Below, in pieces: positions 11,260 to 34,994 of a stretch of DNA of 64,000 nt. The DNA comes from Candidatus Babelota bacterium. Its GTDB lineage: Bacteria; Babelota; Babeliae; Babelales; Vermiphilaceae. The notes below the pieces were generated by a model. The model saw only the letters and a program-made list of their open reading frames with translations. It had not been told where the DNA came from and ran no database searches. The stretch covers positions 529-64,528 of the forward strand of contig JBHPCA010000002.1 in assembly GCA_042576225.1 (NCBI GenBank), in the 5' to 3' direction. The translations under genes were made by a program, and so were the position numbers. The stretch's first letter is position 1. The number at the start of each line of letters is the position of its first letter.

Positions 11260-11350
11260 AATTAGTGTATAGCTATTTGGATCACAATAGTGTATATATT
11301 AATAGATATAATTAAAAATAAGTATTATACGGTTATTATGGGTGATTATT

Positions 11351-12553
11351 ATGAAACATAGAAAAGTAGCAACCAATCCAATTCACACTCCCAAAACGGC
11401 TTTGCTAGGCGTACACGCACCTTACAACCGGATCAAAAACATACAATCCTACTATGAGGAGTTTGTTAATCTAGTCAGATCAAACGAGCTTGCTCATGAT
11501 GAAGAAGTATACATGAAAATAAGGGATGTTAACCCGGTATATTTTTTGACTAAGGGAAAACTTCAGGAGCTAAAGGATTTTTGCGAAAAAAACGAGATAG
11601 AGCAACTTATCATATCAGAGCCATTATCGTCTCAACAAGAAAAAAATCTAAGTGATTACCTTGGATGCAACGTTTGCGACAGAACACAACTGATATTAGA
11701 GATTTTTGAAAAACATGCTCATTCTGCCGAAGGTAAAACCCAGGTAGAAATTGCTATGCTCAGACACCAAAAAACTCGCCTCGCAGGCAAAGGAATTCAC
11801 ATGTCTCAGCAAAGCGGTATTACAGGTAAAATAGGTGGCCCAGGTGAAACAGCAAAAGAAAGAGAAACCCGAGATATAAACCAACAGATATCTACATTAA
11901 AAAAGAGATTAGAAAAATTAAAAAAAGTAAGAGAAACACAACGAAAAAACAGATTTAGAACCAATGTTCCCAATATATGCCTCATCGGCTACACAAACGC
12001 TGGAAAATCAACAATCTTAAATACTTTGACAAAAAGCAAGGTCCTTGCTGAAGACAAATTATTCGCCACATTGGACACAACAACACGAGAGCTTTACATT
12101 GGCGGCAAAAAAAAGGGAATATTGTCTGACTCTGTTGGGTTTATTCAACAGCTTCCACACAATCTCATCGACGCATTCAAATCTACGTTAGACGAACTCC
12201 AATATGCAGATCTTCTACTGCATGTCATAGACATATCTGATCCAAACTGGGAAATGCACACACGAATTGTTAATGATATTTTGCAAGATTTAAATATAGA
12301 AAAAGATATTCTTTACATCTTCAATAAATCTGACAAAATAGATGGCATAATACCAAAACCCCTATTCGATACTAAGCCAGATATTGAACAAGATAGTGAG
12401 CCTCATGACTCAGAAAGCAACCTTTTGCTTGAGCAGGTCAAGAGATATAACCCTTACGTTTTGACATCGGCAAAGTCCAAAGATGGGGTTAAAGATCTTG
12501 TAAATTATTTATCAACCTGGAAAAGAAGCAACAAACAAAAAAATAAGGGATAA
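11351..12553 (+). CDS. hflX: GTPase HflX
   Basis: HflX N-domain, then G motifs GYTNAGKST, DTTT, SDSVGF and NKSD. The track ORF starts at GTG 11342; ATG at 11351 is preferred. Confidence 0.88.
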   Translation: MKHRKVATNPIHTPKTALLGVHAPYNRIKNIQSYYEEFVNLVRSNELAHDEEVYMKIRDVNPVYFLTKGKLQELKDFCEKNEIEQLIISEPLSSQQEKNLSDYLGCNVCDRTQLILEIFEKHAHSAEGKTQVEIAMLRHQKTRLAGKGIHMSQQSGITGKIGGPGETAKERETRDINQQISTLKKRLEKLKKVRETQRKNRFRTNVPNICLIGYTNAGKSTILNTLTKSKVLAEDKLFATLDTTTRELYIGGKKKGILSDSVGFIQQLPHNLIDAFKSTLDELQYADLLLHVIDISDPNWEMHTRIVNDILQDLNIEKDILYIFNKSDKIDGIIPKPLFDTKPDIEQDSEPHDSESNLLLEQVKRYNPYVLTSAKSKDGVKDLVNYLSTWKRSNKQKNKG

Positions 12554-13120: not shown

Positions 13121-15268
13121 ATGAAGCACAAAAAGGGAGTCTTCTCACTCGCAACTTGCATATTTTTTGCATCAATTATTTTTTCTTTGCAAACTTACTG
13201 TAGCGAAGGTGAAAATAAACAGTGTTACGAGCTAGCCGAAAAATATAAAAAGGAAGGCAATAATTCACAGGCAATCTATTATTATAAAAAAGCCTTGGAA
13301 CATAAACCAAATCATTTGAGAACAATATTTGCGCTTGGAAGTCTTTTATACTCTGAAAGTAAATTTAATGAAGCACTTGAGTGCTTTGAAAAAGCCGAAA
13401 CGCTATACCCAAACTCTGCACAAATATACTTTAATCAATCTCTATGCCATATGCAGAAAAAAGATACCGACAAAACAATAGAATGCTTAAAAAAAGCAAT
13501 AGAGAAAAACCCGGACTATAAAAAAGCCTATAATCAACTTGGTTCAATTTTACATAAAAATAAACGGGATAAAGAGGCAATAGAATATCTTAAAAAATCT
13601 TTAGATAAAACCCCAAATGCATACAACACAATATTTTTACTGGCTAAATGCTTACGAAATGTGGATAATCTGGAATCTGCAAAAGAATATTTTATAAAAG
13701 CTCATAAACTAAAGCCTGAAAGCACTATTGCCATGATAGAACTTGCAAATACCTATAACATGTTGCACCAGCCAGAAAAGGCTGCTGAGCTGTACAAAAA
13801 AGTGTTAGAAATAAACCCTAATCAAATGGCCACAAAATATAATCTCGGTTATACACTTAAAAAAATGGGGCGTGTAGATGAAACAATTAAAATTTACAAA
13901 GAAATTTTAAAAGAAAAACCTGATTACGCACAGGCACAGTTTAGCCTTGCTTTGGCCTACCTTGTTTTAGGCGACTTTCAACAGGGCTGGGAAACATATG
14001 AATGGCGATGGAAGGCATATAAAGAAAACAAAAGAACATTTGACAAGCCTATGTGGGATGGCAGCAATCCTCGAGGCAAAACCATTTTATTATATGCAGA
14101 ACAAGGCCTTGGTGACACATTCCAATTTGTTCGATACGCAAAGCTACTTAAAAATATGGGCGCCACTATTATTGTTGCCGCACAAAGACCTGTCGTAAAA
14201 CTTTTACAACTTTGTAAATATATAGACGTAGTAGTCCCAAGAGGGGGGACTTTACCAAATTTTGATTACTACATTCACTTAATGAGTTTACCGTTACAAT
14301 TTAAAACAACCGTTGACACGGTCCCTGATGAAATCCCATATCTATATGCTAACCCAGAGTTAATAGATTACTGGAAAAAAGAACTTGGACCGGACAAAAA
14401 CTTTAAAATTGGTATCTGTTGGCAAGGAAATAAGGGGTACAGAAGCCAAGCATTAAAACATGCCGTTGCTGCAAAATCTATGCATGCCAGCATATTCAAA
14501 CCTTTGGCAGAAATTCCTGGAGTAAGTCTTTATTGTCTTCAAAAAGTAAACGGCGAAGAGCAGCTGAAAGAAATAGATTTTGAAATACACACGTTTGGCC
14601 CCGATTTTGATAAATCACACGGTAGATTTATGGACACTGCTGCGTTAATTAAAAACCTTGATCTAATAGTTTCTGTTGACACTTCAGTATGTCATGTCTC
14701 AGCGGCATTGGGAGCGCAAGTCTGGACGATGCTTCCAAACCCTGCTGACTGGAGATGGATGCTGAAAACAAACAAAACTCCTTGGTATCCAAACATGAGA
14801 CTATTTAGACAAAAAGAGTATGGTACTTGGGAAAACTTAATGCAGGCAGTAAAACAAGAAGTTTGCAAATTGGTAGGCGAAAAAAACGTGAAAGCTAGTA
14901 GCATTGATGACAAAAGTAAAATTGAGGACTTGCCATTCCAGGAAACCCTCGATAAACTAATAATCTTAAAAATAAAATATGATGACTCCCAAGATCCAAA
15001 CATTGGAAAAGAACTTGAAAAAACAGAAGATCAACTAAGAAAAATGTTACTTTTATACAAGGCAAACACAGACGAACTAGACACTCTAGCTGAAAAACTT
15101 TATGATATCAACTCGCAGCTCATCTATATGGACAAACAAATTTCAAAACTAGAAGACAAATCTGTTTTAAACCCAGATTTCATAGACCTCACAAAACGTG
15201 TGCTATTAATAAATAAACTAAAACAACATGTAAAAAAAGAGATAAAAGGTATCATAAAATCTAAATAA
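13121..15268 (+). CDS. TPR-repeat / GT9-like glycosyltransferase paralog 1 with C-terminal DUF6165-like module
   Basis: Signal peptide MKHKKGVFSLATCIFFASIIFSL and multiple TPR units. GT-B-like domain motifs: GLGDTFQFVRYAK, FKIGICWQG, YCLQK, FGPDFD..GRFMDTAALIKNLDLIVSVDTSVCHVSAALG, DWRW, TPWYPNMRLFRQ. An extra tail of about 120 aa follows. Confidence 0.75.
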   Translation: MKHKKGVFSLATCIFFASIIFSLQTYCSEGENKQCYELAEKYKKEGNNSQAIYYYKKALEHKPNHLRTIFALGSLLYSESKFNEALECFEKAETLYPNSAQIYFNQSLCHMQKKDTDKTIECLKKAIEKNPDYKKAYNQLGSILHKNKRDKEAIEYLKKSLDKTPNAYNTIFLLAKCLRNVDNLESAKEYFIKAHKLKPESTIAMIELANTYNMLHQPEKAAELYKKVLEINPNQMATKYNLGYTLKKMGRVDETIKIYKEILKEKPDYAQAQFSLALAYLVLGDFQQGWETYEWRWKAYKENKRTFDKPMWDGSNPRGKTILLYAEQGLGDTFQFVRYAKLLKNMGATIIVAAQRPVVKLLQLCKYIDVVVPRGGTLPNFDYYIHLMSLPLQFKTTVDTVPDEIPYLYANPELIDYWKKELGPDKNFKIGICWQGNKGYRSQALKHAVAAKSMHASIFKPLAEIPGVSLYCLQKVNGEEQLKEIDFEIHTFGPDFDKSHGRFMDTAALIKNLDLIVSVDTSVCHVSAALGAQVWTMLPNPADWRWMLKTNKTPWYPNMRLFRQKEYGTWENLMQAVKQEVCKLVGEKNVKASSIDDKSKIEDLPFQETLDKLIILKIKYDDSQDPNIGKELEKTEDQLRKMLLLYKANTDELDTLAEKLYDINSQLIYMDKQISKLEDKSVLNPDFIDLTKRVLLINKLKQHVKKEIKGIIKSK
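14917..15265 (+). other. DUF6165-like coiled module fused to glycosyltransferase paralog 1
   Basis: ETLDKLIILKIKYDD...LAEKLYDINSQLIYMDKQI...FIDLTKRVLLINKLKQHVKKEI aligns by eye with GELVDKITILQIKSENI...LATKLLVINKQLWDIEDDI...FIQLARSVYYTNDERCAVKRKIN in ORF 32349..33071. Confidence 0.55.
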
Positions 15269-15291: not shown

Positions 15292-16839
15292 ATGCAAAAG
15301 AAACTATTTTTTATCATAATTTTACTACCAACTATTTTGGGTGCGCATCAACAAAACTCGGCCCCCCACAATTTTTTTGAAAAAATTTTAAACCAAGCAA
15401 ATACACACTTTCATACACAAGAATTTGACCAAGCACTCACCTGTTATAAAAAGGCCCTTGAGATACAACCCAGCAGCGTAGAAAGCATGCTGAAAATCGC
15501 CCAAATTCTAGAGAAAAAAAATGAGCCACAGAAGGCAATAATTTACTATAAAAAAATTGTTGCCCTAGCACCAAAGTTTACATATGGGTTTTTAAAGCTA
15601 GCAAAACTACACCATATATTAAAACATTACCACGAAGCTCTCGCTTACTACAAAAAAGTTGATATGTTAAAACCAAATGACACCGCCATAATTTTTAGAA
15701 TAGCGAGTATTCAAAACGCTTTGGGAAAATGCAAAAAAGCCGCGAAAAATTTTTTAAAAATAGCAAAAATTGAACCTAAGAATATTTCAGCCCTTTACAA
15801 CACTGGTTATTCTTTAAAAGTTATGGGCGCTATTGATATGGCTATAGAACTTTATGATCAGGTATTGAAAATTAAACCAGATTATGATCTTGCCCTATAC
15901 GCAAAAGCACTAGCACTTTTATACAAAGGTGATTTTGAAAGAGGCTGGCCACTATACTCGCTTAGACTGATAAAAGAGAAGAGAAACGCACCAAAGCTAA
16001 GAAATTACATAAAAAACAATCAACTCAAAGACAAAATAATATTTCTTACCCCTGAGGGGGGATTTGGCGATACAATTCAATTTATAAGATATGCCGAAAA
16101 ACTTCATAAAAAAGGAGCTATAGTCATCGTTGCCGAAAGAAAACCTCTCATAAAACTACTGGCAAACTGTCCCTACATCGATAAACTAATTTCTACTGGC
16201 AAACGCCCAAATTTTTTCCATGATTACGCAAGCATAATGAGCCTGCCTGCAATATTTGAATCAAAAGAAGAAGATATTCCTAAACAAGTTCCATATCTTT
16301 TCCCTGACAAAAAACTGGAGAAAAAATGGCGTAAACATTTTGAAAATAATAACGCATTTAAAATTGGCTTGTGTTGGGAAGCTGACCTTAAAAATGACAA
16401 GTCTCGCCTTGCTTGCGCACACAGAAGCATACCGCTCGAAAAATTTGAAAAACTTTCCCATATTCCAAATATAGAGTTCTACAGCCTGCAAAAAAGTACC
16501 GGCTCTGATCAAATAAAAATTTTACCGGACCATTTCAAGGTAAAAACTTTTGGCCCTGACTTTGATAATTCCGCCGGCCCTTTTATGGACACCGCAGCAA
16601 TCATGAACCAACTTGACCTGGTCATAACAGTTGATACATCTGTGGCACATCTGGCAGGAGCCTTAGGGATACCAGTTTGGGTAACGCTCCCATACAACAC
16701 AGACTGGCGATGGATTGCAGGCAGAAAAGATTCCCCCTGGTATCCAACTATGAGACTTTTTAAACAAAAAGAGGCCCTTAATTGGGACCATGTTGTCGAC
16801 AATATATATTACGAATTAAAACAAAGAGTAGGCTCATGA
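15292..16839 (+). CDS. TPR-repeat / GT9-like glycosyltransferase paralog 2
   Basis: Signal peptide MQKKLFFIIILLPTILGA and TPR units. Motifs: GFGDTIQFIRYAEK, FKIGLCWEA, YSLQK, FGPDFD..GPFMDTAAIMNQLDLVITVDTSVAHLAGALG, DWRW, SPWYPTMRLFKQ. Confidence 0.75.
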   Translation: MQKKLFFIIILLPTILGAHQQNSAPHNFFEKILNQANTHFHTQEFDQALTCYKKALEIQPSSVESMLKIAQILEKKNEPQKAIIYYKKIVALAPKFTYGFLKLAKLHHILKHYHEALAYYKKVDMLKPNDTAIIFRIASIQNALGKCKKAAKNFLKIAKIEPKNISALYNTGYSLKVMGAIDMAIELYDQVLKIKPDYDLALYAKALALLYKGDFERGWPLYSLRLIKEKRNAPKLRNYIKNNQLKDKIIFLTPEGGFGDTIQFIRYAEKLHKKGAIVIVAERKPLIKLLANCPYIDKLISTGKRPNFFHDYASIMSLPAIFESKEEDIPKQVPYLFPDKKLEKKWRKHFENNNAFKIGLCWEADLKNDKSRLACAHRSIPLEKFEKLSHIPNIEFYSLQKSTGSDQIKILPDHFKVKTFGPDFDNSAGPFMDTAAIMNQLDLVITVDTSVAHLAGALGIPVWVTLPYNTDWRWIAGRKDSPWYPTMRLFKQKEALNWDHVVDNIYYELKQRVGS

Positions 16840-18383
16840 AGCGACCTTATGCATTCTTAAGTTTGTTTATTTTTGCCCATATGTGCATAAAAACAAGCTC
16901 AACAACTCTCTCTCAGACGTTCACAGAGGCAAACAACTTACTTATTAATAAAAAATATACACAAGCAATAGAACTGTATAAAAAAATTATAGCGCTAAAA
17001 CCGGATGTCCCAGGATTATATTTTAACGCAGGCTATGCATGTAAACTTGCAAAAAATTACCCCGATGCAATAGCATATCTTTCCAGGGTAGTAGAAATCA
17101 AACCAAACTGGACAAAGGCCTATAGTCTTTTAGGTGAAATATACCTGGCAATAGACGAATGTGAACTTGCTTTAAAGCATTTGTATAAAGCTATTAAACT
17201 AAACCCTCAAAGTGAAAATGACCATATAAATTTTGCCTCAACACTCATAAGACAAAAAAATTACCCAGAAGCAGAAAAGTACCTCAAAAAATTTGTAAAA
17301 AAATTCCCTAAAAATACAATTCTCACGTATAACCTTGCCTACATCCTTAGAATACAAGGCAAAGAGAAAGAGGCTATCCCTTACTATTTACAAGCACTTG
17401 AAACCGATCCAAGCTTTGATACTGCTCGCTTAGGAATAGCAAAAGCCTATCTTGCAACCGGACAACTTAAAAAAGGCTGGAACTATTTTGAATATCGCTT
17501 TCAAAACAACAAAATATCACACAAAAAATTTGATCATCATACTCTTGTTCCTGCTGACCTTACAAATAAAACGGTATTATTAAAATATGAGTGGGGCCTT
17601 GGTGATATGATGCAATTTATCAGATACGCAAAGTTGATCAAAAGCTATGGCGCAACTATTTTGGTAAGCATACAAAAACCATTACAAAAATTATTTTCTC
17701 TCTGCCCTTATATAGACAAAATTGTTAATGTTGGCGACCGCGTTCCAAAAATCGATTACAAAATTCCAATATTAAGTTTGCCGCTACTTTTCAATACCAC
17801 ACTGGAAACTATACCTGCAAATATCCCATATCTTTACGCAGATGAAAAACTAATCTCTCTCTGGAGAAATAAACTGTCACACAACAAAAACTTCAAAGTT
17901 GGTATATGCTGGCATGCAAAGCCTATATTCTTAGAAAATAACTATTTAACTAGACGCACCGTACCACTAAAAGATTTCGAACCCCTTGCAAACATAAAAA
18001 ATACAACTTTGTACAGCCTACAAAAAATATATGGACTTGAAGAATTGGATAATCTCCCTGATAATTTTAACATAGCTACTTTTGGCCCAGACTTTGATGA
18101 AACAAACGGAAGATTTATGGACACAGCAGCGCTCATTGAAAATTTAGACCTGGTCATAACTGCTGATACATCAATTGTCCATATTGCAGGAGCACTGGGA
18201 AAACCAGTTTGGATATTGGTACCCTATGTTGCTGAATGGCGATGGTTACAAAAAAGCAATCGCACACCATGGTATCCAAAAGCTCGTCTTTTTAGGCAAA
18301 AGCAGCCATCTGACTGGACCCATGTAATCAAAGAAGTAACAAAAGAACTCGAAAAACATATAAATAATAACCCTCAAAAGTAA
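16836..18383 (+). CDS. TPR-repeat / GT9-like glycosyltransferase paralog 3
   Basis: ATG at 16836 overlaps the previous TGA (ATGA) and gives signal peptide MKRPYAFLSLFIFAHMC. Motifs: GLGDMMQFIRYAK, FKVGICWHA, YSLQK, FGPDFD..GRFMDTAALIENLDLVITADTSIVHIAGALG, EWRW, TPWYPKARLFRQ. Confidence 0.75.
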   Translation: MKRPYAFLSLFIFAHMCIKTSSTTLSQTFTEANNLLINKKYTQAIELYKKIIALKPDVPGLYFNAGYACKLAKNYPDAIAYLSRVVEIKPNWTKAYSLLGEIYLAIDECELALKHLYKAIKLNPQSENDHINFASTLIRQKNYPEAEKYLKKFVKKFPKNTILTYNLAYILRIQGKEKEAIPYYLQALETDPSFDTARLGIAKAYLATGQLKKGWNYFEYRFQNNKISHKKFDHHTLVPADLTNKTVLLKYEWGLGDMMQFIRYAKLIKSYGATILVSIQKPLQKLFSLCPYIDKIVNVGDRVPKIDYKIPILSLPLLFNTTLETIPANIPYLYADEKLISLWRNKLSHNKNFKVGICWHAKPIFLENNYLTRRTVPLKDFEPLANIKNTTLYSLQKIYGLEELDNLPDNFNIATFGPDFDETNGRFMDTAALIENLDLVITADTSIVHIAGALGKPVWILVPYVAEWRWLQKSNRTPWYPKARLFRQKQPSDWTHVIKEVTKELEKHINNNPQK

Positions 18384-18395
18384 AGGATAAACTTC

Positions 18396-20171
18396 GTGCA
18401 AAAAAACAAAAACACCGAAAAAATAATTTTTAACTATGCAATCCCAGCCTTGACCATAGCCTCAATTATATTTTTAGGCTCTGCGATAAAAGATAGGTTT
18501 TCAAAAAGCATTGATCAACAAAAAACTGCCCTCTTGCAAACTAGCCAAACTGGGGACAATCTAGAAACCTTAGTCAATCTAGATTATCTTCAAAAGAAAA
18601 TAGAAATTGCAAGCGAGCTCACAAAAAATGGAGCAACCAAAAAAGCGATAGAGTATTATAAAACACTTTTACAATATGAGCGCACTTTTTCGATAATTCA
18701 TTTTAATATCGGCAAACTTTACTCAAATATAAAAAACTTCAAAAAAGCAGAGTACCATTTTAAAAAATCGATCGAACAAAGCCCCAAAAACTCAAATTCT
18801 CATACATTCTTAGGTGTAGCATTACGAAATATGGAACAATATGACGAATCAATAAAACATCTCAAAATAGCTATAAAACTTACTCCAAATTATTTTGACG
18901 CTAATCTACAACTAGGAAAAACGTATCTAGATATGGGAAAAACAATAAAAGCAATAAAATACAGTTATAAAGCAGCAAAACTATCACCAAAGAGCATATA
19001 CCCACATTTAAATATCGCTTATTCATATAACAAACAGGGAAACCTTGAGAAAGCCGTCGAAATTTATCGACAAGTCATTAAAATTGATCCTCAATGCGCC
19101 AATGCACATTACAATCTTGGCTACTCCCTAAAGATTTTAGGAAAACTAAAAGAGGCCGTTACCTTCTTGGACAAAGCAATTTCACTAAAACCCGATTATT
19201 TAGACGCTCACATTGCAAGATCACAATCTAAGATTGCATTACAAAACTTCGATGAGGGTTGGGATGAATATGAATGGCGCTGGGGATTATTCGGCATGGA
19301 TCCACATAAATACAAAGCTGGTATGTGGGACGGCTCCAACATCAAGGGCAAGACTATATTGCTAAGAACAGAACAGGGACTTGGTGACACTATGCAATTC
19401 GTACGTTTGGCAAAACAGGTAAAAGCAATGGGTGCGAAAAAAGTTATCTGTAAAGTACAAAAACCTCTAGTAAAACTGCTTTCAAACTGCGACTTTATTG
19501 ACAAAGTAATACATGATCTTGACGATGCAGGAAAGTATGATCATTATGCCCACCTTATGAGCTTACCAAGAATTTTAAAAATGCAACCTGACACCATCCC
19601 TGCAGAAATCCCATACTTCAAAGCTGATCCAAAATTGGAAAAAGAGTGGCGTGAAAAACTCCAAAAAGATAAAAACTTTAAAATTGGTATCTGCTGGCAT
19701 GTTGACCCAGTTCATGAGGAAACAAAATCGCCCTGGTCACTCCGGTCGGTCAACTTAAAACAGCTCAAGCCTTTTGCAAAACTAAAAAATGTTACCTTCT
19801 ACAGCTTACAAAAACTTCAGGATCAACAACAACTTGCACTCGTTCCTGAGGGGATGAACTTCCAACATTTCGGCCCTGATTTTGACAAGAAAAATGGTAG
19901 CTTCATGGACAGCTCAGCAATTATAAAAAGCTTAGATCTTGTTGTCACAGTTGATACCTGCGTTGCTCACCTTGCCGGCGCTTTGGGCAAAGAAGTATGG
20001 ATGCTACTTCCATATTCACCAGATTGTCGCTGGTACCTCAACACTGATAAAACTCCTTGGTATCCAACCATGACACTCTTTAGACAGGATAAACCACAAA
20101 GTTGGGATAGTGTAATAAATAAAATCGCAACATCACTTGAAAAAGAGATTAAAAAACATAAAACAACGTAA
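18396..20171 (+). CDS. TPR-repeat / GT9-like glycosyltransferase paralog 4
   Basis: GTG start and N-terminal anchor IIFNYAIPALTIASIIFLGSAI, with TPR units. Motifs: GLGDTMQFVRLAK, FKIGICWHV, YSLQK, FGPDFD..GSFMDSSAIIKSLDLVVTVDTCVAHLAGALG, CRWY, TPWYPTMTLFRQ. Confidence 0.75.
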   Translation: MQKNKNTEKIIFNYAIPALTIASIIFLGSAIKDRFSKSIDQQKTALLQTSQTGDNLETLVNLDYLQKKIEIASELTKNGATKKAIEYYKTLLQYERTFSIIHFNIGKLYSNIKNFKKAEYHFKKSIEQSPKNSNSHTFLGVALRNMEQYDESIKHLKIAIKLTPNYFDANLQLGKTYLDMGKTIKAIKYSYKAAKLSPKSIYPHLNIAYSYNKQGNLEKAVEIYRQVIKIDPQCANAHYNLGYSLKILGKLKEAVTFLDKAISLKPDYLDAHIARSQSKIALQNFDEGWDEYEWRWGLFGMDPHKYKAGMWDGSNIKGKTILLRTEQGLGDTMQFVRLAKQVKAMGAKKVICKVQKPLVKLLSNCDFIDKVIHDLDDAGKYDHYAHLMSLPRILKMQPDTIPAEIPYFKADPKLEKEWREKLQKDKNFKIGICWHVDPVHEETKSPWSLRSVNLKQLKPFAKLKNVTFYSLQKLQDQQQLALVPEGMNFQHFGPDFDKKNGSFMDSSAIIKSLDLVVTVDTCVAHLAGALGKEVWMLLPYSPDCRWYLNTDKTPWYPTMTLFRQDKPQSWDSVINKIATSLEKEIKKHKTT

Positions 20172-20254: not shown

Positions 20255-21922
20255 TCATACATTTGCAACTTTGTTTTTCTCAACAACGCATTTGTTCACC
20301 GTCGTAGCCAATTTTACAATTTCCACTCGTCCAGTATCTTTCTTCTCAACCTTCGTAATCCCTGCAACAGCAACAAATTTACCACAATTTGACCATTCAT
20401 TAAAAATAGCAACATTCAGTCCATCTTTAAATTCAAAATTCGTCAAAGGCGTCAAGAATGGACTCAATAATGAATTGAACGCGTAGAGTTTATTAGAGCC
20501 AGCACTTGATGTTAACAATGTCTTGCCATCTGGTGACCAGCTTACAGCAGTTAAATTAGCATCATTGCCTGCAAAAATTTCAGTCAACGTATCTGCCGAG
20601 GCCAGATACTCATAAACCCTTGGAAGATCATTAGTGCCGGTAGCTACAATACAATATTTTTCACGGGATGCTATTGGATTCCATTTTGCCTTTGCAATGC
20701 CTGCTCCTCCTATGCTTACGCTCGCCAGACCCGTCAATGGTATAGTTTTGGCAACATGCATCATCGATGTACTTTTATCACCATACACAACAAACTTATC
20801 ATCTGGTGCTACATCAAGCATTATTAGGTCATTTGTATCACCCAATAATTTACGCTCTGCCAAAACAAGCTTTATTCCATTGAAAGACAATCTCACAAGT
20901 TTCGCCGACTCAGGGCCCCCAGCAACATTCAAATATGAGTAATTATAAGCATAATTACTCCCCCCATCACTATTACCGGTAATAACAAAATTTTTACCTT
21001 CAGTTGTCGCAAAAAGTTGCTTTCCATCATGCGACCAAGCTAACCGGAGAATCCGATCTGGTGCGCTTGTTGTACCTGCAGACGTCGGATGATTGCCAAA
21101 ATAAATTGCTTCCCCAGAAGATAGAGTAGACGCAACTTCATAAGTACGATTGCCAGGAAGAGGTGTGCCATCAAGGAACTCAGCAACTTTGGTTCCTTTA
21201 TTATCCGCCGCCCTAATCGTAGAAACTGGATTATATGCACTTACCATCTTTACACCTGTACGTACACCAGAAACCAATTTCAATGATCCACGATCAAACT
21301 TGTATACCAAAACTTCTTTATCTTTATCTGCGGTACTAACAAAGGTTATAAATTCTGAAGAAACAAGTTCATAACTTCCATCTTCTTTCCTTTTACCCTT
21401 ATAAACTTCAACCGGACCTAAATTATTTGTCCCAACGGCCAAGTACTGGCCGTCTGGTGACCATGCAACGGCATTAACCGCTCTATTGAACGAAACAGTT
21501 TGAACCTCGTAAAGTTTGGCGCCGTCAAATCTTAATATTCGCAATTTATAATCTTCTTTACCAATTGTTGAAATAGCTAAATAACTGCAATTTGGAGACC
21601 AATCAAAATCTGTTAACAATTTACCGGGTTCTGCTTGATACGCCGTTATAAACTTGGTTTTCGAAAGCTTCATGTCAAGACCAACACCCTTGCGGCAATT
21701 TGATACTCTCAAATCTTTTAAGATAACTCTTTTTGTTCCTGATTTCGACGCATCATTTTTTATAATCACATCTTCCACATTTTCGTCTATGACAACAAGT
21801 GGATCTGAGCCACTACTACCAGATGACATTATCGTTTGCCCATTCAGGTTGGAAGAAATAAAAAAATAAAAAAATATTACAAAAAATGTAAGCTTCTTAT
21901 TACACAAAAAACTTTGCTTCAT
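20255..21922 (-). CDS. truncated paralog of the beta-helix/beta-propeller family (propeller retained, helix core and C-tail missing)
   Basis: 555 aa with a signal-like N-terminus and repeated W-S-P-D/N-G/C blade motifs. Collinear with residues about 95-130 and 300-765 of the 851-aa neighbour. Stops right after VVEKNKVANV, where the paralogs continue. Could be a decaying copy. Confidence 0.6.
   Translation of the reverse strand: MKQSFLCNKKLTFFVIFFYFFISSNLNGQTIMSSGSSGSDPLVVIDENVEDVIIKNDASKSGTKRVILKDLRVSNCRKGVGLDMKLSKTKFITAYQAEPGKLLTDFDWSPNCSYLAISTIGKEDYKLRILRFDGAKLYEVQTVSFNRAVNAVAWSPDGQYLAVGTNNLGPVEVYKGKRKEDGSYELVSSEFITFVSTADKDKEVLVYKFDRGSLKLVSGVRTGVKMVSAYNPVSTIRAADNKGTKVAEFLDGTPLPGNRTYEVASTLSSGEAIYFGNHPTSAGTTSAPDRILRLAWSHDGKQLFATTEGKNFVITGNSDGGSNYAYNYSYLNVAGGPESAKLVRLSFNGIKLVLAERKLLGDTNDLIMLDVAPDDKFVVYGDKSTSMMHVAKTIPLTGLASVSIGGAGIAKAKWNPIASREKYCIVATGTNDLPRVYEYLASADTLTEIFAGNDANLTAVSWSPDGKTLLTSSAGSNKLYAFNSLLSPFLTPLTNFEFKDGLNVAIFNEWSNCGKFVAVAGITKVEKKDTGRVEIVKLATTVNKCVVEKNKVANV
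20260..21675. repeat. segmental duplication, copy 1 (pairs with 22224-23640)
   Basis: Constant offset of 1964 nt. In the 120 nt compared by eye (20521-20640 vs 22485-22604) there are 10 mismatches. Boundaries are approximate. Confidence 0.7.
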
Positions 21923-21990
21923 AATTCATCCCTTTTTTGTTTTTAATTAGACAGCTCTACTCACAGTTTACTATTCACCATGCAATCCCA

Positions 21991-24546
21991 CTACTGCACG
22001 CACCCACATTCGCAAATTGCAGGAATGCAACTGCATGGACAACCAGCGCAGCCTTCATTTGCATACAAATTATCAAGAAGGCCAGGAAAACCCATCAAAT
22101 TATATCGATGTCTTGCGTACACACCTTCACTGTATGGCACACCGCTACAACAAACCATGTTGGCATCTATCAAGTTACAACACCCACCGCCAAAGATGCC
22201 AATGCCGCAAAAACCACCGCACACATTTGCGATCTTGTTTTTCTCAACAACACACTTGTTAACCGTTGTAGCCAATTGAACAATTTCCACTTGCCCTGTA
22301 TCTTCCGCCTCAACCGTCGCAAGCCCCGCAATAGCAACAAATTTACCACAACTTGACCAACCGTTAAAAGTCGCAACATTCAGTCCATCTTGAAATTCAA
22401 AATTCGTCAAAGGCGTCAAAACTGGACTCAATGATGGATTGAACGCATAAAGCTTATTAGAACCAGCCCTTGATGTTAACAATGTCTTGCCATCAGGAGA
22501 CCAGTTTACAGCAGTCAAATTAGCATCATTGCCTGCAAAAATTTCAGTCAACGTATCTTCTGAAGCCTGGTACTCATAAACCCTTGGAAGATCATCAGTG
22601 CCGGTAGCTACAATACAATATTTTTCACAGCATGCAATTGGATTCCACTTTGCCTTTGCAATGCCTGCTCCTCCTATGCTTACGCTCGCAAGACCCGTCA
22701 ATGGTATCGTTTTAGCAATATGAATCATCGAGGTACTTTTATCACCATACATAACGAATTTATCATCTGGTGCTACATCAAGTATTATTAAATCATTCGT
22801 ATCACCCAATAATTTACGCTCTGCCAAAACAAGTTTTGTTCCATCAAAAGACAATCTCACAAGTTTTGCCGACTCATCAATAGCTGGATCAACATCCAAA
22901 TATGAGTAATCATAAGCATAATTACCCCCGCCATCAGTATTGGTAATAAGTAAATCTTTACCTTCAGTTGTCGCAAAAAGTTGCCTTCCATCATGCGACC
23001 AGGCTACCCGAAGAATCCTATCTGGTGCGTTTGTTGTACCTGCAGGTGTCGGATGGTTACCAAAATAAGTTATTTCCCCAGAAGATGGAATAGGCACAAC
23101 TACAGGAGTAAGATTACCAGGAAGAGGTGTGCCATCAAAGGACTCCAAAAGCGCAGTACCAGCATTGTCTGCTACTCTAATCGTAGAAACCGAATCATAT
23201 GCACTTACCATCTGCACACCTGTACGTGCACCAGAAACTAATTCCAATGATCCACAATCAAACTTATATACTAAAATTTCCTTATCTTTATCTGCAGTAC
23301 TAACAAAGGTTATAAATTCTAAAGAAGCAGGCCCATAACTTCCATCATCTTGTCTCTCGCTTATATACACTTCAACTGGGCCTAAATTATTTGTCCCAAC
23401 AGCCAAGTACTGGCCATCTGGGGACCATGCAACTGCATTAACCGCTCTATTGAACGAAATAGTTTGAACCTCGTAAAGTTTTACGCCGTCAAATCTTAAT
23501 ATTCGCAATTTATAGTCGTCTGTGTCAATTGTTGCAATAGCTAAATGCTTGCAATTTGGGGACCAATCTAAATCTGTTAATTTTTTACCCGGTTCTGCTT
23601 GATATGCTGTTATAAACTTGGTTTGTGAAAGCTTCATATCCAGATAAATACCATATGCATTACCCCAGCTTGCAGTCTTGATAGAATCTATGCAGCAGTT
23701 TATAATTTTTGATTCCGTTTCTGGCGTATCATCTTTGTAACCAAACCTAAAACCGGCTGCTTTTGTGCAAAAATCACTATTTACACATTTTGCAATATCT
23801 TCTACAAAACATTCATAAAACAAATTATCTAGACCCCCAAGAGAGATAAATCCATACGCACTGCCTACTTGATTAGTATTACTTACCCCTAATACTTTAC
23901 ACTGCTCAAATTTATTATATTTACAACTATCTAAATCAAAGCCAGTATATTCACAACAACATACAACTGTATCTTTGAAAATACATTTTTCTGCATAATC
24001 CAAATCAACTGCAATGCTACAAGTTTTTATGTGGCAATTTTGGACCCTACAGCAGACAACCTCACTTCCTGACTCACCTGCAAAATCAATACCTTTGTAG
24101 CAATCTGATATTCTCAAATTTTTTAAAATAACTCTTTTTGCTCCTGCTTTCAACTGTATACCAGTATCAATACAGTTCCCAACAATTGCACCATTTTTTA
24201 TAATCACATCTTCTACGTTTTCATCTATTACAACCAATGGATCTGAACTGCTACTGGATGCCGTTATCGTATGCCCATTCAGATCAATTATCACTTTATT
24301 TGCAGTAACCAAAAGCGTTGCACTTGTGATATTCTCATAGAGCCCATACGAACCATCTTTGTCTATCACATTGTTGGCAGTGTCTTTGATAATATTGTGC
24401 ACAGGATCCATAGAGTGTAACATAGCCAACAAACGACTACCATTTGTAAGATCCATACATGCCGCAGAAAAAACCCTGGAAGAAAAAGATGAAAAAAGTA
24501 GCAAGGCAAACACCATTACCCTACTATAGGGAAACTTGTACTTCAT
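21991..24546 (-). CDS. secreted Cys-rich parallel beta-helix protein with embedded beta-propeller (paralog 2, Cys-rich tail)
   Basis: 851 aa starting with the MKYKFP signal peptide. PbH1-like turns with a Cys ladder (VVCCRVQNCHIKTCSIAVDLDYAEKCIFKDTVVCCCEYTGFDLDSCKYNKFEQCKV). Blades DWSPNCKHLAIAT, VAWSPDGQYLAVGT, VAWSHDGRQLFATT, VNWSPDGKTLLTS. Returns to helix turns at NKIANVCGGFCGIGIF. Tail ends CAGCPCSCIPAICECGCVQ. Confidence 0.7.
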   Translation of the reverse strand: MKYKFPYSRVMVFALLLFSSFSSRVFSAACMDLTNGSRLLAMLHSMDPVHNIIKDTANNVIDKDGSYGLYENITSATLLVTANKVIIDLNGHTITASSSSSDPLVVIDENVEDVIIKNGAIVGNCIDTGIQLKAGAKRVILKNLRISDCYKGIDFAGESGSEVVCCRVQNCHIKTCSIAVDLDYAEKCIFKDTVVCCCEYTGFDLDSCKYNKFEQCKVLGVSNTNQVGSAYGFISLGGLDNLFYECFVEDIAKCVNSDFCTKAAGFRFGYKDDTPETESKIINCCIDSIKTASWGNAYGIYLDMKLSQTKFITAYQAEPGKKLTDLDWSPNCKHLAIATIDTDDYKLRILRFDGVKLYEVQTISFNRAVNAVAWSPDGQYLAVGTNNLGPVEVYISERQDDGSYGPASLEFITFVSTADKDKEILVYKFDCGSLELVSGARTGVQMVSAYDSVSTIRVADNAGTALLESFDGTPLPGNLTPVVVPIPSSGEITYFGNHPTPAGTTNAPDRILRVAWSHDGRQLFATTEGKDLLITNTDGGGNYAYDYSYLDVDPAIDESAKLVRLSFDGTKLVLAERKLLGDTNDLIILDVAPDDKFVMYGDKSTSMIHIAKTIPLTGLASVSIGGAGIAKAKWNPIACCEKYCIVATGTDDLPRVYEYQASEDTLTEIFAGNDANLTAVNWSPDGKTLLTSRAGSNKLYAFNPSLSPVLTPLTNFEFQDGLNVATFNGWSSCGKFVAIAGLATVEAEDTGQVEIVQLATTVNKCVVEKNKIANVCGGFCGIGIFGGGCCNLIDANMVCCSGVPYSEGVYARHRYNLMGFPGLLDNLYANEGCAGCPCSCIPAICECGCVQ
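22224..23640. repeat. segmental duplication, copy 2 (pairs with 20260-21675)
   Basis: See copy 1. Covers the propeller-coding part of the 851-aa gene. Confidence 0.7.
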
Positions 24547-24592
24547 TAGGTCTCCTTTTAATTTAAGTTATTAATATTTAAATAATTATCAA

Positions 24593-26701
24593 TTAATATG
24601 GGGGTATTGAAACGTTATAATGTAATTGATCAATGCCTACAAGACCACAATACCAAACATTGAGCACTTTTTGTGAGAAACTCAAGTCACATTCGTAACA
24701 GATATTTTTCAATATCGAGTTACAATCACTAGAGCCAAATATTCCAATACCGCCTAGACCACCAGTAACATTTGCAACTTTATTGTTATACACAACACAC
24801 TTAGTAGGAGCAATACCAACTTCAATAATATTGAAGTTAGGAATAATTGATCCATCATCGCCACCAAATACCAAGAAATTACCTGACGGAGACCAATCAA
24901 GACCGCCTTGGCTAACCTGTATACCAAGTGATTTTGAGTACACAAGAGAAATTACCGGACTTACGGATGGATCAAACTTGTATACACCAACAGTTCCATT
25001 AGTTGCAAATACTGCAAAATAGTTACCATTAGGCGCCCATTTTATTCTCAATACAGTATCATCAAAAAGCGCTGCGCCTCCAAATACCAAATCTATCCCA
25101 TCAAATGAATAAACATTTATATTTGCAGTTGCCCCAGTTCCAACAGCAACAAGATAATATTTGCCATTACATGCAATTGGACACCACTGCACATCATTTA
25201 TCCCTGTCAAACCGGTTGATGTGTCTGATGCAACTTGTACAGTTGAAAATGGTATATGCGTTTTCCAATCTCTTACAAACAAGTCTCCAGTTGCGTATGA
25301 TCCAAAGGCTATAAATTTCTCATCTGGAGTAATATCTGGATTTGTTAAATCAGTTAACCCCGTGTCAATTCCTGCACCTGAATTTGCAACATTTGTCAAA
25401 GTACCATCAACCTTGTAAACATCAATAAAAGCTCCGCCCCTGATATACACAACATATTTTCCGCTTCTAAACCAGACAGGATCGGAAACATCTACATCTG
25501 GGTTATCACCCATTATCAGCCCATAAAGCGTATCATACACAACAACTTCATCGTCTTGCCCTGAAAGCGCCCCTATAGCCAAATACCTTCCAGTAGGATC
25601 CCACTCAATATGTCGCTTGTCGTTAGAGGTGGTAGTTAAACTACTAACCTCATGCCATGTCTTACAATTAAAGTCTAATATTTTTACAGGTCCAGCACTT
25701 ATTCCCTCTGAAGCCTCACCTGAGAAAACAATCGCTATCTTATCCCCAAGGGGCGACCATGAAATATCTGCTATAGAATCTTCAAAATTACTTAATATTG
25801 CCGGGCACCCTGATGCAGGGTCTGCAATAAGTGTGCTTTTGAATACCGACTCCAGAATTATACCATACGCATTACCCAACTCTGCGCCGGTTAAAGAATC
25901 TACCAGGCAATTTATAATCTTTGACTCTGTTTCACCTGCATCCTCCCCTGTTGAGGCAAATCTAAATCCTATAGCATCTTTCCCAAATTCACTTGCTGAT
26001 TTGTAAATTCCCTCTGCCATACACTCAAAGAAAAGATTATCTTGACCACTTATGGCAGAAAAACCTACGGCCTGCTTATCTGCAAAAGAACTTCCAGTTC
26101 TAATAGCTTTACACTTTTTTATTTTGTTGTACTTGGATTTTGTAAAAACAAAGCCACCTTCTGTACAACAACAACTTTCACAATTTTCAAACACACAATT
26201 CATTGCAAAATCAATTGAAAAACCAAAAGAAGAATCTGCTACAAAACAATTTGTAACTTTACAACATCGAACATATTTATCAATTGCACCAGAAAAAGCT
26301 ATACCAGTAGAACAGTTTGCTACATTGAGATCTTGAATAACAATATTCTGCGCGCTGTCATCAATTAATACACCAGTATTAACCTGGTCGCTACCAAAAA
26401 TTGATCCATTCTGTATAACAATATTTTTTTGACCTTCACCTACATTAAACACAGAAGTCTTTGCAGCATTCCCTGATACAGTAAAACCTTTAAGGTTTAT
26501 CAAGACATTATCTGCATTAACCGTTATGTCCCCTGTTATATTTTCTATAACATGATATGAACCTGGTTCTGTGATTATCGTTGTCCCGTTTTTAATTATT
26601 TGATGCGCAGGACCAACACCAAATAGGTTTATCTGGCTTATCTGAGAAAATATCGTAGAACAAAAAGATAAAAGAAGAAGTATAGGTATTTTGTACTTCA
26701 T
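24593..26701 (-). CDS. secreted Cys-rich parallel beta-helix protein with embedded beta-propeller (paralog 3, SIPPY C-terminus)
   Basis: 702 aa starting with the MKYKIP signal peptide. Helix turns (VRCCKVTNCFVADSSFGFSIDFAMNCVFENCESCCCTEGGFVFTKSKYNKIKKCKA) and the family motif ETESKIINCLVDS. Blades ISWSPLGDKIAIV, IEWDPTGRYLAIG, IKWAPNGNYFAVF, LDWSPSGNFLVFG. Ends NKVANVTGGLGGIGIF...VSIPPY. Confidence 0.7.
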   Translation of the reverse strand: MKYKIPILLLLSFCSTIFSQISQINLFGVGPAHQIIKNGTTIITEPGSYHVIENITGDITVNADNVLINLKGFTVSGNAAKTSVFNVGEGQKNIVIQNGSIFGSDQVNTGVLIDDSAQNIVIQDLNVANCSTGIAFSGAIDKYVRCCKVTNCFVADSSFGFSIDFAMNCVFENCESCCCTEGGFVFTKSKYNKIKKCKAIRTGSSFADKQAVGFSAISGQDNLFFECMAEGIYKSASEFGKDAIGFRFASTGEDAGETESKIINCLVDSLTGAELGNAYGIILESVFKSTLIADPASGCPAILSNFEDSIADISWSPLGDKIAIVFSGEASEGISAGPVKILDFNCKTWHEVSSLTTTSNDKRHIEWDPTGRYLAIGALSGQDDEVVVYDTLYGLIMGDNPDVDVSDPVWFRSGKYVVYIRGGAFIDVYKVDGTLTNVANSGAGIDTGLTDLTNPDITPDEKFIAFGSYATGDLFVRDWKTHIPFSTVQVASDTSTGLTGINDVQWCPIACNGKYYLVAVGTGATANINVYSFDGIDLVFGGAALFDDTVLRIKWAPNGNYFAVFATNGTVGVYKFDPSVSPVISLVYSKSLGIQVSQGGLDWSPSGNFLVFGGDDGSIIPNFNIIEVGIAPTKCVVYNNKVANVTGGLGGIGIFGSSDCNSILKNICYECDLSFSQKVLNVWYCGLVGIDQLHYNVSIPPY

Positions 26702-26748
26702 TAGGTCTCCTTTTAATTAAAAGTTAGTGTTACACTATAAACTACACC

Positions 26749-29304: not shown

Positions 29305-29393
29305 TAGGTCTCCTTTTAATTAAAAGTTAGTATTGCATCATAAATCACACAAAACTATACACTACTACAAAATGCTCGCACAGTACTAAATTC

Positions 29394-32348: not shown

Positions 32349-33071
32349 ATGAAGTACACAAATAAAATAATTGCATTATCCGTGCTGTGTGCAATATACG
32401 CACAGACATCTTTTAGTTGCGACGAATGCGATAGAATAAAACAACAATATGATAATCCACCAAGCTCTATTGAACAACCAAAAGGCTGTTCCTGCTCACA
32501 ACCAAAACCCCCAAAACCAAAAAGTGAAGATGAAGAGAAAGGCTGCTCTTGTTCTCAACCAAAACCCCCAAGACCAAAAAGCGAAGATGAAGAAAAGGGC
32601 TGCTCCTGCTCACAACCAAAACCACCAAGACCAAAGGGATGCTCCTGCTCGCAACCAAAACCACCCCGCCCAAAAGACGACTCAAAAGTAACCGCTGAGA
32701 TCGCAGTTGGTGAGTTAGTAGACAAGATTACCATCTTGCAAATCAAATCAGAGAATATCAAAGATACAGCAAAGCTAGAAAATATTCATAGAGAGCTTGA
32801 GGCACTTGGTGAAACATTAGACGAACGTGTAGAGAAATCTCCTGAGCTTGAGGACCTTGCAACCAAACTTCTTGTAATTAACAAGCAACTTTGGGATATA
32901 GAGGACGACATCAGAGACAAAGAACGTGCCAAAGAATTCGATACCGAATTTATTCAACTAGCTCGAAGCGTTTACTACACAAATGATGAAAGATGCGCTG
33001 TAAAAAGAAAAATCAATGATCTTACAGGATCGAGACTTCAAGAAGAAAAATCTTATAAAGATTATAAGTAG
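32349..33071 (+). CDS. secreted protein: Cys/Pro/Lys tandem repeats plus C-terminal DUF6165-like domain
   Basis: Signal peptide MKYTNKIIALSVLCAIYAQTS and four KGCSCSQPKPP(K/R)PK repeats. The C-terminal 120 aa (GELVDKITILQIK...INKQLWDIEDDIR...LARSVYYTNDER...EEKSY) looks like the DUF6165 family as I recall it. Confidence 0.7.
   Translation: MKYTNKIIALSVLCAIYAQTSFSCDECDRIKQQYDNPPSSIEQPKGCSCSQPKPPKPKSEDEEKGCSCSQPKPPRPKSEDEEKGCSCSQPKPPRPKGCSCSQPKPPRPKDDSKVTAEIAVGELVDKITILQIKSENIKDTAKLENIHRELEALGETLDERVEKSPELEDLATKLLVINKQLWDIEDDIRDKERAKEFDTEFIQLARSVYYTNDERCAVKRKINDLTGSRLQEEKSYKDYK
32481..32675 (+). repeat. in-frame tandem repeat (two 57-nt units, then two 39-nt units)
   Basis: Encodes KGCSCSQPKPPKPKSEDEE, KGCSCSQPKPPRPKSEDEE, KGCSCSQPKPPRP and KGCSCSQPKPPRP. 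The units differ mostly at synonymous sites. Confidence 0.85.
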
Positions 33072-34783: not shown

Positions 34784-34994
34784 ATCTACAAAAAACAAAA
34801 CTAATCAAGAAATCACCAGCTACTTTGCGTCTTGTAATAACAATTCACATCTCTCTTCCCAAAATATCATTTCTCATCTCACATCACCCTGAGCTTGAAA
34901 AAACATAAGAATCTGGAAAAAATAATCCCGTGTACTATACTTGAGTATTATATACTTATTAAAAAAAATTATCACAAAATATATATGGGAAGAA

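Follow-up and report, generated by a model that had tools for sequence, protein, structure and literature searches.

The stretch of DNA analysed here, hereafter the window, comprises 64,000 nucleotides (nt) from a Candidatus Babelota bacterium (assembly GCA_042576225.1, contig JBHPCA010000002.1, positions 529 to 64,528) and has a G+C content of 36.7%. At 13-20 kb it encodes four paralogous proteins that combine tetratricopeptide repeats (TPR) with a glycosyltransferase (GT) domain resembling family GT9. The four genes are co-directional, and each product consists of an N-terminal signal-like segment, a TPR array and a C-terminal GT domain. Paralog 1 extends beyond its GT domain by a C-terminal tail. 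Further downstream, open reading frame (ORF) 32349..33071, called ORF 32349 below, encodes a protein that ends in a domain of the family DUF6165. The relation of the tail to this domain, and of the domain to glycosyltransferases, is the subject of this report. The features are listed in Table 1, in which TPR-GT stands for a TPR plus GT9-like protein; L and P numbers are our designations for loci and proteins used in comparison.

Table 1. Coordinates of the genes and segments of the window considered here
Feature	Position	Strand	Basis or remark
HflX-type GTPase gene, upstream synteny anchor	11342..12553	+	Pfam; also 5' of the tail-bearing TPR-GT in L087, L088 and L089
TPR-GT paralog 1 (715 amino acids, aa)	13121..15268	+	ORF; Pfam TPR families, Glyco_transf_9
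Paralog 1, signal-like or anchor N-terminal segment (MKHKKGVFSLATCIFFASIIFSLQTY)	13121..13198	+	Hydropathy maximum 2.52
Paralog 1, TPR repeat region (about aa 33-296)	13217..14008	+	Pfam TPR_1, TPR_2 and others; E down to 1e-39
Paralog 1, GT-B domain of GT9 type (about aa 290-595)	13988..14905	+	AlphaFold predicted local distance difference test (pLDDT) >90; Foldseek
Paralog 1, degenerate DUF6165-like four-helix domain (aa 607-714), homologous core of the tail	14939..15262	+	Family hidden Markov model (HMM), hhalign, structural model
TPR-GT paralog 2 (515 aa), without tail	15292..16839	+	ORF, Pfam, end of GT domain
TPR-GT paralog 3, without tail	16836..18383	+	ORF, Pfam, end of GT domain
TPR-GT paralog 4 (591 aa), without tail	18396..20171	+	ORF, Pfam, end of GT domain
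Five paralogous signal-peptide beta-helix plus WD40 propeller genes	20255..31910	-	Pfam; part the GT cluster from the DUF6165 gene
Canonical DUF6165 protein gene (ORF 32349, 240 aa)	32349..33071	+	AAAGGAG Shine-Dalgarno sequence 6 nt 5' of ATG; Pfam
ORF 32349, signal-like N-terminal segment (MKYTNKIIALSVLCAIYAQTSF)	32349..32414	+	Conserved in Dependentiae orthologs
ORF 32349, Cys/Pro/Lys-rich repeat linker (KGCSCSQPKPPxPK)	32480..32676	+	Tandem repeat; variable in orthologs
ORF 32349, canonical DUF6165 domain (aa 117-240), C-terminal GSRLQEEKSYKDY motif	32697..33068	+	Pfam; family HMM
Ankyrin-repeat protein gene, signal-like N-terminus	33265-34707		Between the DUF6165 gene and UvrD
UvrD-type helicase gene, downstream synteny anchor	34941..37361	+	Directly after canonical DUF6165 in L001, L088 and L089

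Paralog 1 is 100% identical to an NCBI entry named 'tetratricopeptide repeat protein [Candidatus Dependentiae bacterium]' (P0130). Its match to the Pfam GT9 family (PF01075; cut-off 22 bits) is weak and covers the nucleotide-sugar-binding motif: paralog 1 reaches 22.7 bits and paralog 3 22.6 bits, in both cases along a stretch of only about 30 residues, and paralogs 2 and 4 remain below the cut-off with 19.0 and 18.6 bits. With a model of the GT domain plus tail as the Foldseek query, the top nine matches in the PDB are GT9 proteins (3tov, 1psw WaaF, WaaC), and the GT9-type matches, including TibC, range from E 1.5e-8 to 1e-3 with a TM score of about 0.53 on the target, at a sequence identity of 10-14% to solved GT9 enzymes. 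As modelled, the catalytic domain of paralog 1 is thus a GT-B fold closest to those enzymes. Two motifs of the domain, GLGD and VDTSxxH, are invariant across 67 homologs; we take them to resemble the catalytic Asp and the nucleotide-sugar motif of WaaC. An unexpected entry among the GT9-like matches was chain 1 of the spinach NDH-PSI-LHCI supercomplex (9grx; E 5e-5, TM score 0.46 on the target).

The GT-B fold likeness thus links paralog 1 to the GT9 heptosyltransferases (WaaC, WaaF and the Veillonella GT9 protein 3tov) and to TibC. Unlike these, it possesses an N-terminal TPR array and a signal-like segment. In O-GlcNAc transferase (CAZy GT41), a TPR array is followed by a GT-B catalytic domain. 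Paralog 1 has the same domain order, and by this analogy it may act on protein substrates; however, its catalytic domain is nearer to GT9 than to GT41, and O-GlcNAc transferase has no C-terminal bundle of the DUF6165 type. Two further observations concern the gene models of this group. The ORF of paralog 3 was listed from a TTG at 16782, with a 58-nt overlap with paralog 2; its start is probably the ATG at 16836 (MKRPYAFLSLFIF...), which overlaps the stop of paralog 2 and yields a normal signal-like N-terminus. A Dependentiae protein of 1327 aa (L001, 4248-8231) contains three tandem GT9-like catalytic domains interleaved with TPR regions.

ORF 32349 is a full member of Pfam PF19662 (DUF6165): the whole protein scores 33.6 bits and the domain 34.7 bits, above the gathering cut-off of 27. 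The overlap with PF14063 (DUF4254) is weaker, and sub-threshold matches to that family occur in 62 of 64 DUF6165 members. All the family motifs are kept in the domain, namely GELxDKxTILxIK, NxxLWxIEDxIRxxE, FxxLARxVYxxNDxRxxxK and GSxLxEEKSYxxY. There are 7276 homologs of ORF 32349, every listed one flagged PF19662, and stand-alone proteins of about 130 aa in Proteobacteria, Planctomycetota and Acidobacteriota share 55-60% identity with the domain. Relative to these stand-alone proteins, ORF 32349 adds a signal peptide and a repeat linker, both specific to Dependentiae. The 'PKPP repeat' mentioned in the preliminary description is a 57-bp tandem repeat encoding KGCSCSQPKPP(K/R)PK(SEDEE), present in 2.7 copies at 32480-32635 and followed by one shorter copy.

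Existing annotation offers little on this family. Source names of DUF6165 homologs ('ccd antitoxin', 'EnvC') are scattered and inconsistent, and were not relied on. NCBIfam has no DUF6165 model; PADLOC gave no defence-system match and PHROGs no phage-family match. The literature that we searched contained no paper on DUF6165, mentioned DUF4254 only twice and incidentally, and held nothing on the TPR-GT9 proteins of Dependentiae. The NCBI record P0001, a 'DUF6165 family protein' of 123 aa, matches the last part of ORF 32349 with 99% identity. It covers only the final 123 aa of the ORF ('MAVGEL...'), with an internal start codon other than ATG. Truncation of the public annotation is probable, judging from the AAAGGAG site in front of the ATG at 32349 and from the conservation of the signal peptide in orthologs. 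Look-ups by exact sequence, with paralog 1 and with the 123-aa form, returned no contig.

Two tandem pairs of canonical DUF6165 domains were also found, P0124 (415 aa) and P0125 (292 aa), in which both domains are complete. P0124 has in addition an N-terminal signal-like segment and a long low-complexity linker. Such proteins suggest that the domain works as a pair.

The preliminary description had proposed that the tail of paralog 1 is a DUF6165-like module shared with ORF 32349. The peptides that it quoted occur in the translations of ORF 13121..15268 and ORF 32349..33071. The segment itself is real, but its start had been placed at 14917, off frame by one base; the in-frame segment is 14918..15265 (aa 600-715). 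Confinement to paralog 1 was confirmed, the GT domain stopping 124 aa before the stop codon in this protein as against 1-2 aa in paralogs 2-4. The tail aligns with the C-terminal domain of ORF 32349 by BLASTP (30% identity over 117 aa, E 1e-9), and the alignment is significant in a shuffling test: the Smith-Waterman score is 109, compared with 37.5 +/- 6.9 for shuffled sequences (n = 5000, z 10.4), none of which reached 109. Two low-complexity, coiled-coil-like helical segments might resemble each other by chance, and the reversed-sequence control indeed scores 64, well over the average of the shuffles (37). Part of the score, though not all of it, is accordingly owed to helical periodicity.

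Profile methods gave the same answer as the shuffling test. With an HMM built from the 120 best DUF6165 homologs, the tail scores 39.6 bits (E 9e-12, positions 5-112 of 124) and ORF 32349 scores 195 bits, and the next best of the 354 ORFs in the window reaches only 5.6 bits. The hhalign comparison of a profile of 26 tails with a profile of 64 DUF6165 domains gave a probability of 99.6% (E 1.9e-23, 117 columns). An HMM made from degenerate tails other than that of the window gave 67.7 bits for the latter and 71-94 bits for canonical domains. Detection depends on depth: a word-indexed homolog search with the tail alone gave no matches, and an exhaustive search was required, phmmer then retrieving canonical DUF6165 members at E 4e-6 to 9e-4. 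Likewise, Pfam DUF6165 is not matched at E<=1 by the tail, either alone or inside the whole of paralog 1. The proposed assignment to DUF6165 thus holds by Pfam for ORF 32349 but not for the tail, which is recognised as a homolog only by deeper profiles and through orthologs with an intact copy. Together with those orthologs, which carry a canonical DUF6165 domain in the place of the tail, the family HMM and hhalign rule out a chance resemblance, the likelihood of which we regard as negligible. The four-helix domain of DUF6165 is present, in diverged form, as the last ~110 residues of paralog 1.

The predicted structures agree in topology. The model of the canonical domain (pLDDT 93) has four helices, 4-20, 24-44, 49-77 and 83-110, followed by a floppy C-terminal stretch that is predicted to be disordered (pLDDT 51-73) yet is invariant. 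In the model of the paralog 1 GT domain plus tail (pLDDT 92.2), a GT-B fold is followed by a linker and four helices, 317-334, 337-357, 362-387 and 396-425 (pLDDT 90-97), whose lengths match those of the canonical domain and whose topology is the same. The invariant polar and aromatic residues of DUF6165 form stripes along helices 1, 3 and 4. Foldseek against the PDB with the canonical domain gave no match below E 0.05, only generic four-helix sensor and FAT-type bundles with a TM score of about 0.5, and a sequence search of the PDB gave nothing meaningful. A kinship with MazG-like, all-alpha NTP-pyrophosphatases was considered and rejected for want of support: no MazG-type family was among the Pfam matches at E<=5 (64 members), the PDB sequence matches or the top 50 Foldseek matches.

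The tail is degenerate in the sense that almost all the family-invariant polar residues are gone. By alignment it keeps the helix-1 motif (ETLDKLIILKIK), N62, E76, N96, K103 and the hydrophobic positions; W66, E69, D70, R73, R90, Y93, D97 and R99 are replaced, and the tail stops short of the C-terminal GSxLxEEKSYxxY motif. It therefore differs from PF19662 members in escaping Pfam detection and in having neither the invariant polar residues nor the EEKSY end. Such tails are common among relatives. Of the 122 closest homologs of the GT domain, 56 continue C-terminally for at least another 90 aa, and 49 of these extensions are detectably DUF6165-like, so that about 40% of the closest Dependentiae GT homologs bear such a tail. 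Seven are canonical (128-183 bits, EEKSY or EEKLY kept, six with a precomputed Pfam PF19662 match) and 42 are degenerate like that of the window; the EEKSY motif is absent from all of the latter (42/42). One canonical fusion, P0243, carries the NCBI name 'DUF6165 family protein, partial', which means that the canonical fusion architecture is already in databases, without functional interpretation.

With nearly all its invariant polar residues and its C-terminal motif lost, and now beyond Pfam detection, the tail could be a decaying and functionless relic of an ancestral canonical fusion, linked to gene 32349 by history only. The low mutual identity of the tails (15-34%, vs 51-65% for the attached GT domains) would fit such decay. 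We nevertheless consider a relic quite unlikely. The helix pattern and the hydrophobic positions are preserved in all 49 DUF6165-like extensions, an extension of ~110 aa is retained in nearly half of the homologs (56/122), and the tail is modelled with confidence. The tail-bearing TPR-GT is always the first gene after HflX, in five loci, and reduced genomes should often have truncated an appendage of 110 aa had it been useless.

The two DUF6165 copies of the window belong to a locus that is conserved in Dependentiae. Its gene order is Ffh and ribosomal genes, HflX, a TPR-GT with a degenerate tail, further TPR-GTs, canonical DUF6165 and UvrD, with beta-propeller genes nearby. The canonical copy is free and has a signal peptide in L001 and L088, and is fused to the last TPR-GT in L089. 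In the four loci covered in full, namely the window, L001, L088 and L089, there is exactly one degenerate and one canonical copy each. The window holds this same locus, split by the five beta-helix/WD40 genes and the ankyrin gene. Both insertions are absent from the corresponding position of L001, L088 and L089, and the beta-helix/WD40 genes are interposed in the window only. The HflX and UvrD anchors and the gene order shared with these three loci place gene 32349 with the 13-20 kb cluster, to which it had earlier been tied by the shared domain.

The association with glycosyltransferases extends far beyond Dependentiae. A pattern scan with one genome per species found at least 596 DUF6165 loci, in Acidobacteriota, Alpha- and Gammaproteobacteria, Planctomycetota, Marinimicrobia, Fibrobacterota and Dependentiae. 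Linkage was counted in 85 distinct loci, scoring a GT-B glycosyltransferase within 1.5 kb or in the same ORF; greedy gene calling missed the short DUF6165 gene in about 30 high-GC loci, and HMM-based domain coordinates were used instead. A GT-B glycosyltransferase met this definition in 66/85 loci (78%), six times as a same-ORF fusion, and in 7/85 a GT lay beyond 1.5 kb. The nearest enzyme was a classical GT9 (41 adjacent, 1 fusion), a TPR-GT9-like protein (12 adjacent, 4 fusions) or a GT4 (7 adjacent, 1 fusion). DUF6165 is usually the gene adjacent to the GT and sometimes part of one polypeptide with it. The flanks of +/-10 kb contain 87 GT9-like domains, 51 of them <=500 bp from the DUF6165 domain, and in an unbiased Pfam census of 110 flanking ORFs Glyco_transf_9 ranked first (26), followed by TPR families (15).

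The earlier statement that DUF6165 is commonly encoded next to TPR-GT9-like genes is accordingly true (16/85) but too narrow, classical GT9 (42/85) and GT4 (8/85) being partners as well. In Acidobacteriota (L008, L010, L012, L013 and L015) DUF6165 follows a GT4 (Glycos_transf_1) gene and not a GT9 gene, as a direct check in L008 showed. The classical GT9 partners match the NCBIfam models of heptosyltransferases I, II and III, all below the equivalog cut-offs, and some of these loci adjoin Kdo-kinase-like or LpxK genes.

The Rosetta-stone argument drawn from the fusion in paralog 1 is valid in kind, but the fused copy of the window has lost the family invariants, and the clean case is made by canonical GT fusions elsewhere (P0123, P0230, P0237, L089, L069 and L084). 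P0123 is a TPR-GT-DUF6165 protein from a high-GC organism. The fusion in L069 is GT4-DUF6165; that in L084 is GT9-DUF6165, with a classical GT9, and its two domains are read through without an intervening stop codon. P0129 has the architecture DUF6165-TPR. By gene order and fusion, DUF6165 is a partner module of GT-B glycosyltransferases of the classical GT9, TPR-GT9-like and GT4 types. For a family of more than 7000 sequence clusters in which we found no structural relative, this linkage is the first functional lead, and the GT-B partnership gives it a concrete and testable context. The DUF6165 family itself was already known, and the canonical fusion is visible in precomputed annotations. 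New are the widespread degenerate subfamily on Dependentiae TPR-GTs, the rule of one degenerate plus one canonical copy per locus, and the quantified linkage to GT-B enzymes across phyla.

DUF6165 also occurs in viruses. IMG/VR viral contigs contain at least 462 DUF6165 loci, 50-59% identical to the window domain, and GT9-like, GT4 and sulfotransferase genes are neighbours at some of them. The isolated cyanophage S-SRM01 has a DUF6165-like gene that overlaps a glycosyltransferase gene at the latter's end and is followed by one for a nucleotide-sugar epimerase. That region (L170; Synechococcus phage S-SRM01, MW015081, 231-236 kb) reads as a glycan-modification block of sulfotransferase, glycosyltransferase, the DUF6165-like QPX48313 and nucleotide-sugar epimerase. 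QPX48313 is annotated only as a hypothetical protein, not as DUF6165.

Taken as a whole, these data are best explained, with moderate confidence, by a conserved locus in which DUF6165 serves as an accessory module of GT-B enzymes and the tail of paralog 1 as a docking platform. The canonical domain would be a non-catalytic accessory subunit. Its putative ligand- or partner-binding site would be formed by the conserved polar stripes of helix 1 (E6, D9, K10 and K17), helix 3 (N62, W66, E69, D70, R73 and E76) and helix 4 (R90, Y93, N96, D97, R99 and K103), and the flexible invariant GSxLxEEKSYxxY segment may reach into the partner. The tail of paralog 1, which would keep the hydrophobic core only, is most likely a docking platform for the free canonical protein; the two may pair like the halves of the tandem DUF6165-DUF6165 proteins and so couple free DUF6165 to paralog 1. 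This pairing is predicted from the tandem proteins and from the one-degenerate-plus-one-canonical rule. Retention of a 'dead' copy on the enzyme beside a live free copy likewise suggests a heteromeric assembly. Small non-catalytic partners needed for GT-B activity are known from DesVIII, EryCII and TylM3, the P450-like activators of GT1 enzymes. By analogy, DUF6165 would be another small non-catalytic partner encoded beside a GT-B enzyme, although it differs in fold (a four-helix bundle vs a P450-like fold) and in enzyme family (GT9 and GT4 vs GT1).

The place of action may be outside the cytoplasm. By hydropathy, signal-like segments are present in all four TPR-GTs of the window and in its DUF6165 protein. 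They occur in 78/112 Dependentiae TPR-GTs and 39/46 long DUF6165 proteins, and in 0/69 short DUF6165 proteins of other phyla. With such an N-terminal segment on every component here, we speculate that the system probably works outside the cytoplasm. Dependentiae are obligate parasites of protists, and the export signals across their set raise the possibility of host-directed protein glycosylation.

Several observations weigh against the accessory-subunit explanation or are left unexplained by it. A nucleotide-sugar-dependent GT-B enzyme is not expected in the periplasm, so export and the inferred catalysis sit uneasily together. The model of the GT domain plus tail reaches a predicted template modelling score (pTM) of only 0.75. 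Twelve of the 85 bacterial loci have no GT, although seven of these lie on contigs of <8 kb. A crude neighbour-joining tree of the GT domains did not separate fused from unfused proteins. The identity of DUF6165 domains between phyla and phages (55-60%) exceeds what a mere adaptor would usually show and hints at an activity of the domain itself. Finally, in 15 of 52 non-redundant viral loci, DUF6165 is flanked by the halves of a split family-B DNA polymerase (PolB): L096 (3075-6307), L101, L103, L106, L107, L112, L122, L123, L130, L137, L138, L139, L142, L160 and L166. The N-terminal half contains the exonuclease and palm, and an ORF of 66-87 aa precedes the DUF6165 gene. A MazG-like pyrophosphohydrolase gene lies just upstream in L096, and GT9 and GT4 models detected no glycosyltransferase within 5 kb on either side in any of these 15 loci. 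This placement is not explained by an accessory subunit and is the main reason why our confidence in the mechanism is moderate; it indicates that the biochemistry of DUF6165 goes beyond present understanding. Split gp43-type PolB genes occur in T4-related phages, where the intervening ORFs include homing endonucleases. The 15 viral loci are similar in that the PolB halves are encoded separately and have ORFs between them, but the gene found there is DUF6165, a partner of glycosyltransferases in cells.

In a second reading, DUF6165 would handle nucleotides or nucleotide-activated donors as a small four-helix enzyme or binding protein. It might, for instance, remove or sequester the nucleoside diphosphate (NDP) product or the NDP-sugar; GTs and the phage DNA polymerase would then both be its clients, and the tail of paralog 1 an inactivated copy. 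One face of helices 1, 3 and 4 lined by invariant acidic, basic and aromatic residues would suit such a role, as would the extreme conservation across phyla and phages, the position between PolB halves with the MazG-like gene upstream, and the fact that the donor sugars of GT9 and GT4 differ, for which the nucleotide moiety could be the common denominator. However, besides the MazG type, nucleotide-binding families too were absent from the Pfam, PDB sequence and Foldseek results described above, and neither a His nor a classical P-loop-like motif is seen in the domain. Nucleotide handling would be compatible with the fusions and with the 78% adjacency to GTs, but does not require them. We consider this reading unlikely.

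A third reading starts from the invariant C-terminal motif. DUF6165 may be an acceptor or primer protein of the neighbouring GT, glycosylated on the invariant Ser or Tyr of EEKSYxxY; canonical fused enzymes would then modify themselves, and the motif-less degenerate tail would only recruit the free acceptor. The invariance of a stretch predicted to be disordered would be accounted for, and so would the loss of the motif in every degenerate copy while one canonical copy is kept per complete Dependentiae locus. That the partner GTs have TPR domains points to protein substrates, and the structurally related TibC is a protein heptosyltransferase. Yet an identity of ~58% across phyla along three helices would be needless in a mere acceptor, and where classical GT9 partners adjoin LpxK and Kdo-kinase genes, they resemble enzymes of the lipopolysaccharide core. 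On balance this role appears improbable. Its extended form, in which the Ser or Tyr takes a sugar from the GT-B enzyme and conceivably a nucleotide from the split PolB of phages, the fusions are self-priming like glycogenin, and the tail of paralog 1 acts as a decoy to which the free, exported product of 32349 docks as the acceptor, is more doubtful still.

The genes between the GT cluster and UvrD in the window yielded some minor observations. The beta-helix region of the proteins encoded at 20255-31910 is right-handed, and propeller genes of a similar kind are also found close to the locus in L001 and L089. The 555-aa beta-helix/WD40 protein (20255-21922) appears to derive from the 851-aa type by an internal deletion, given the SDPLVVIDENVEDVIIKN and LDMKLSxTKFITAYQAEPGK blocks that both contain.

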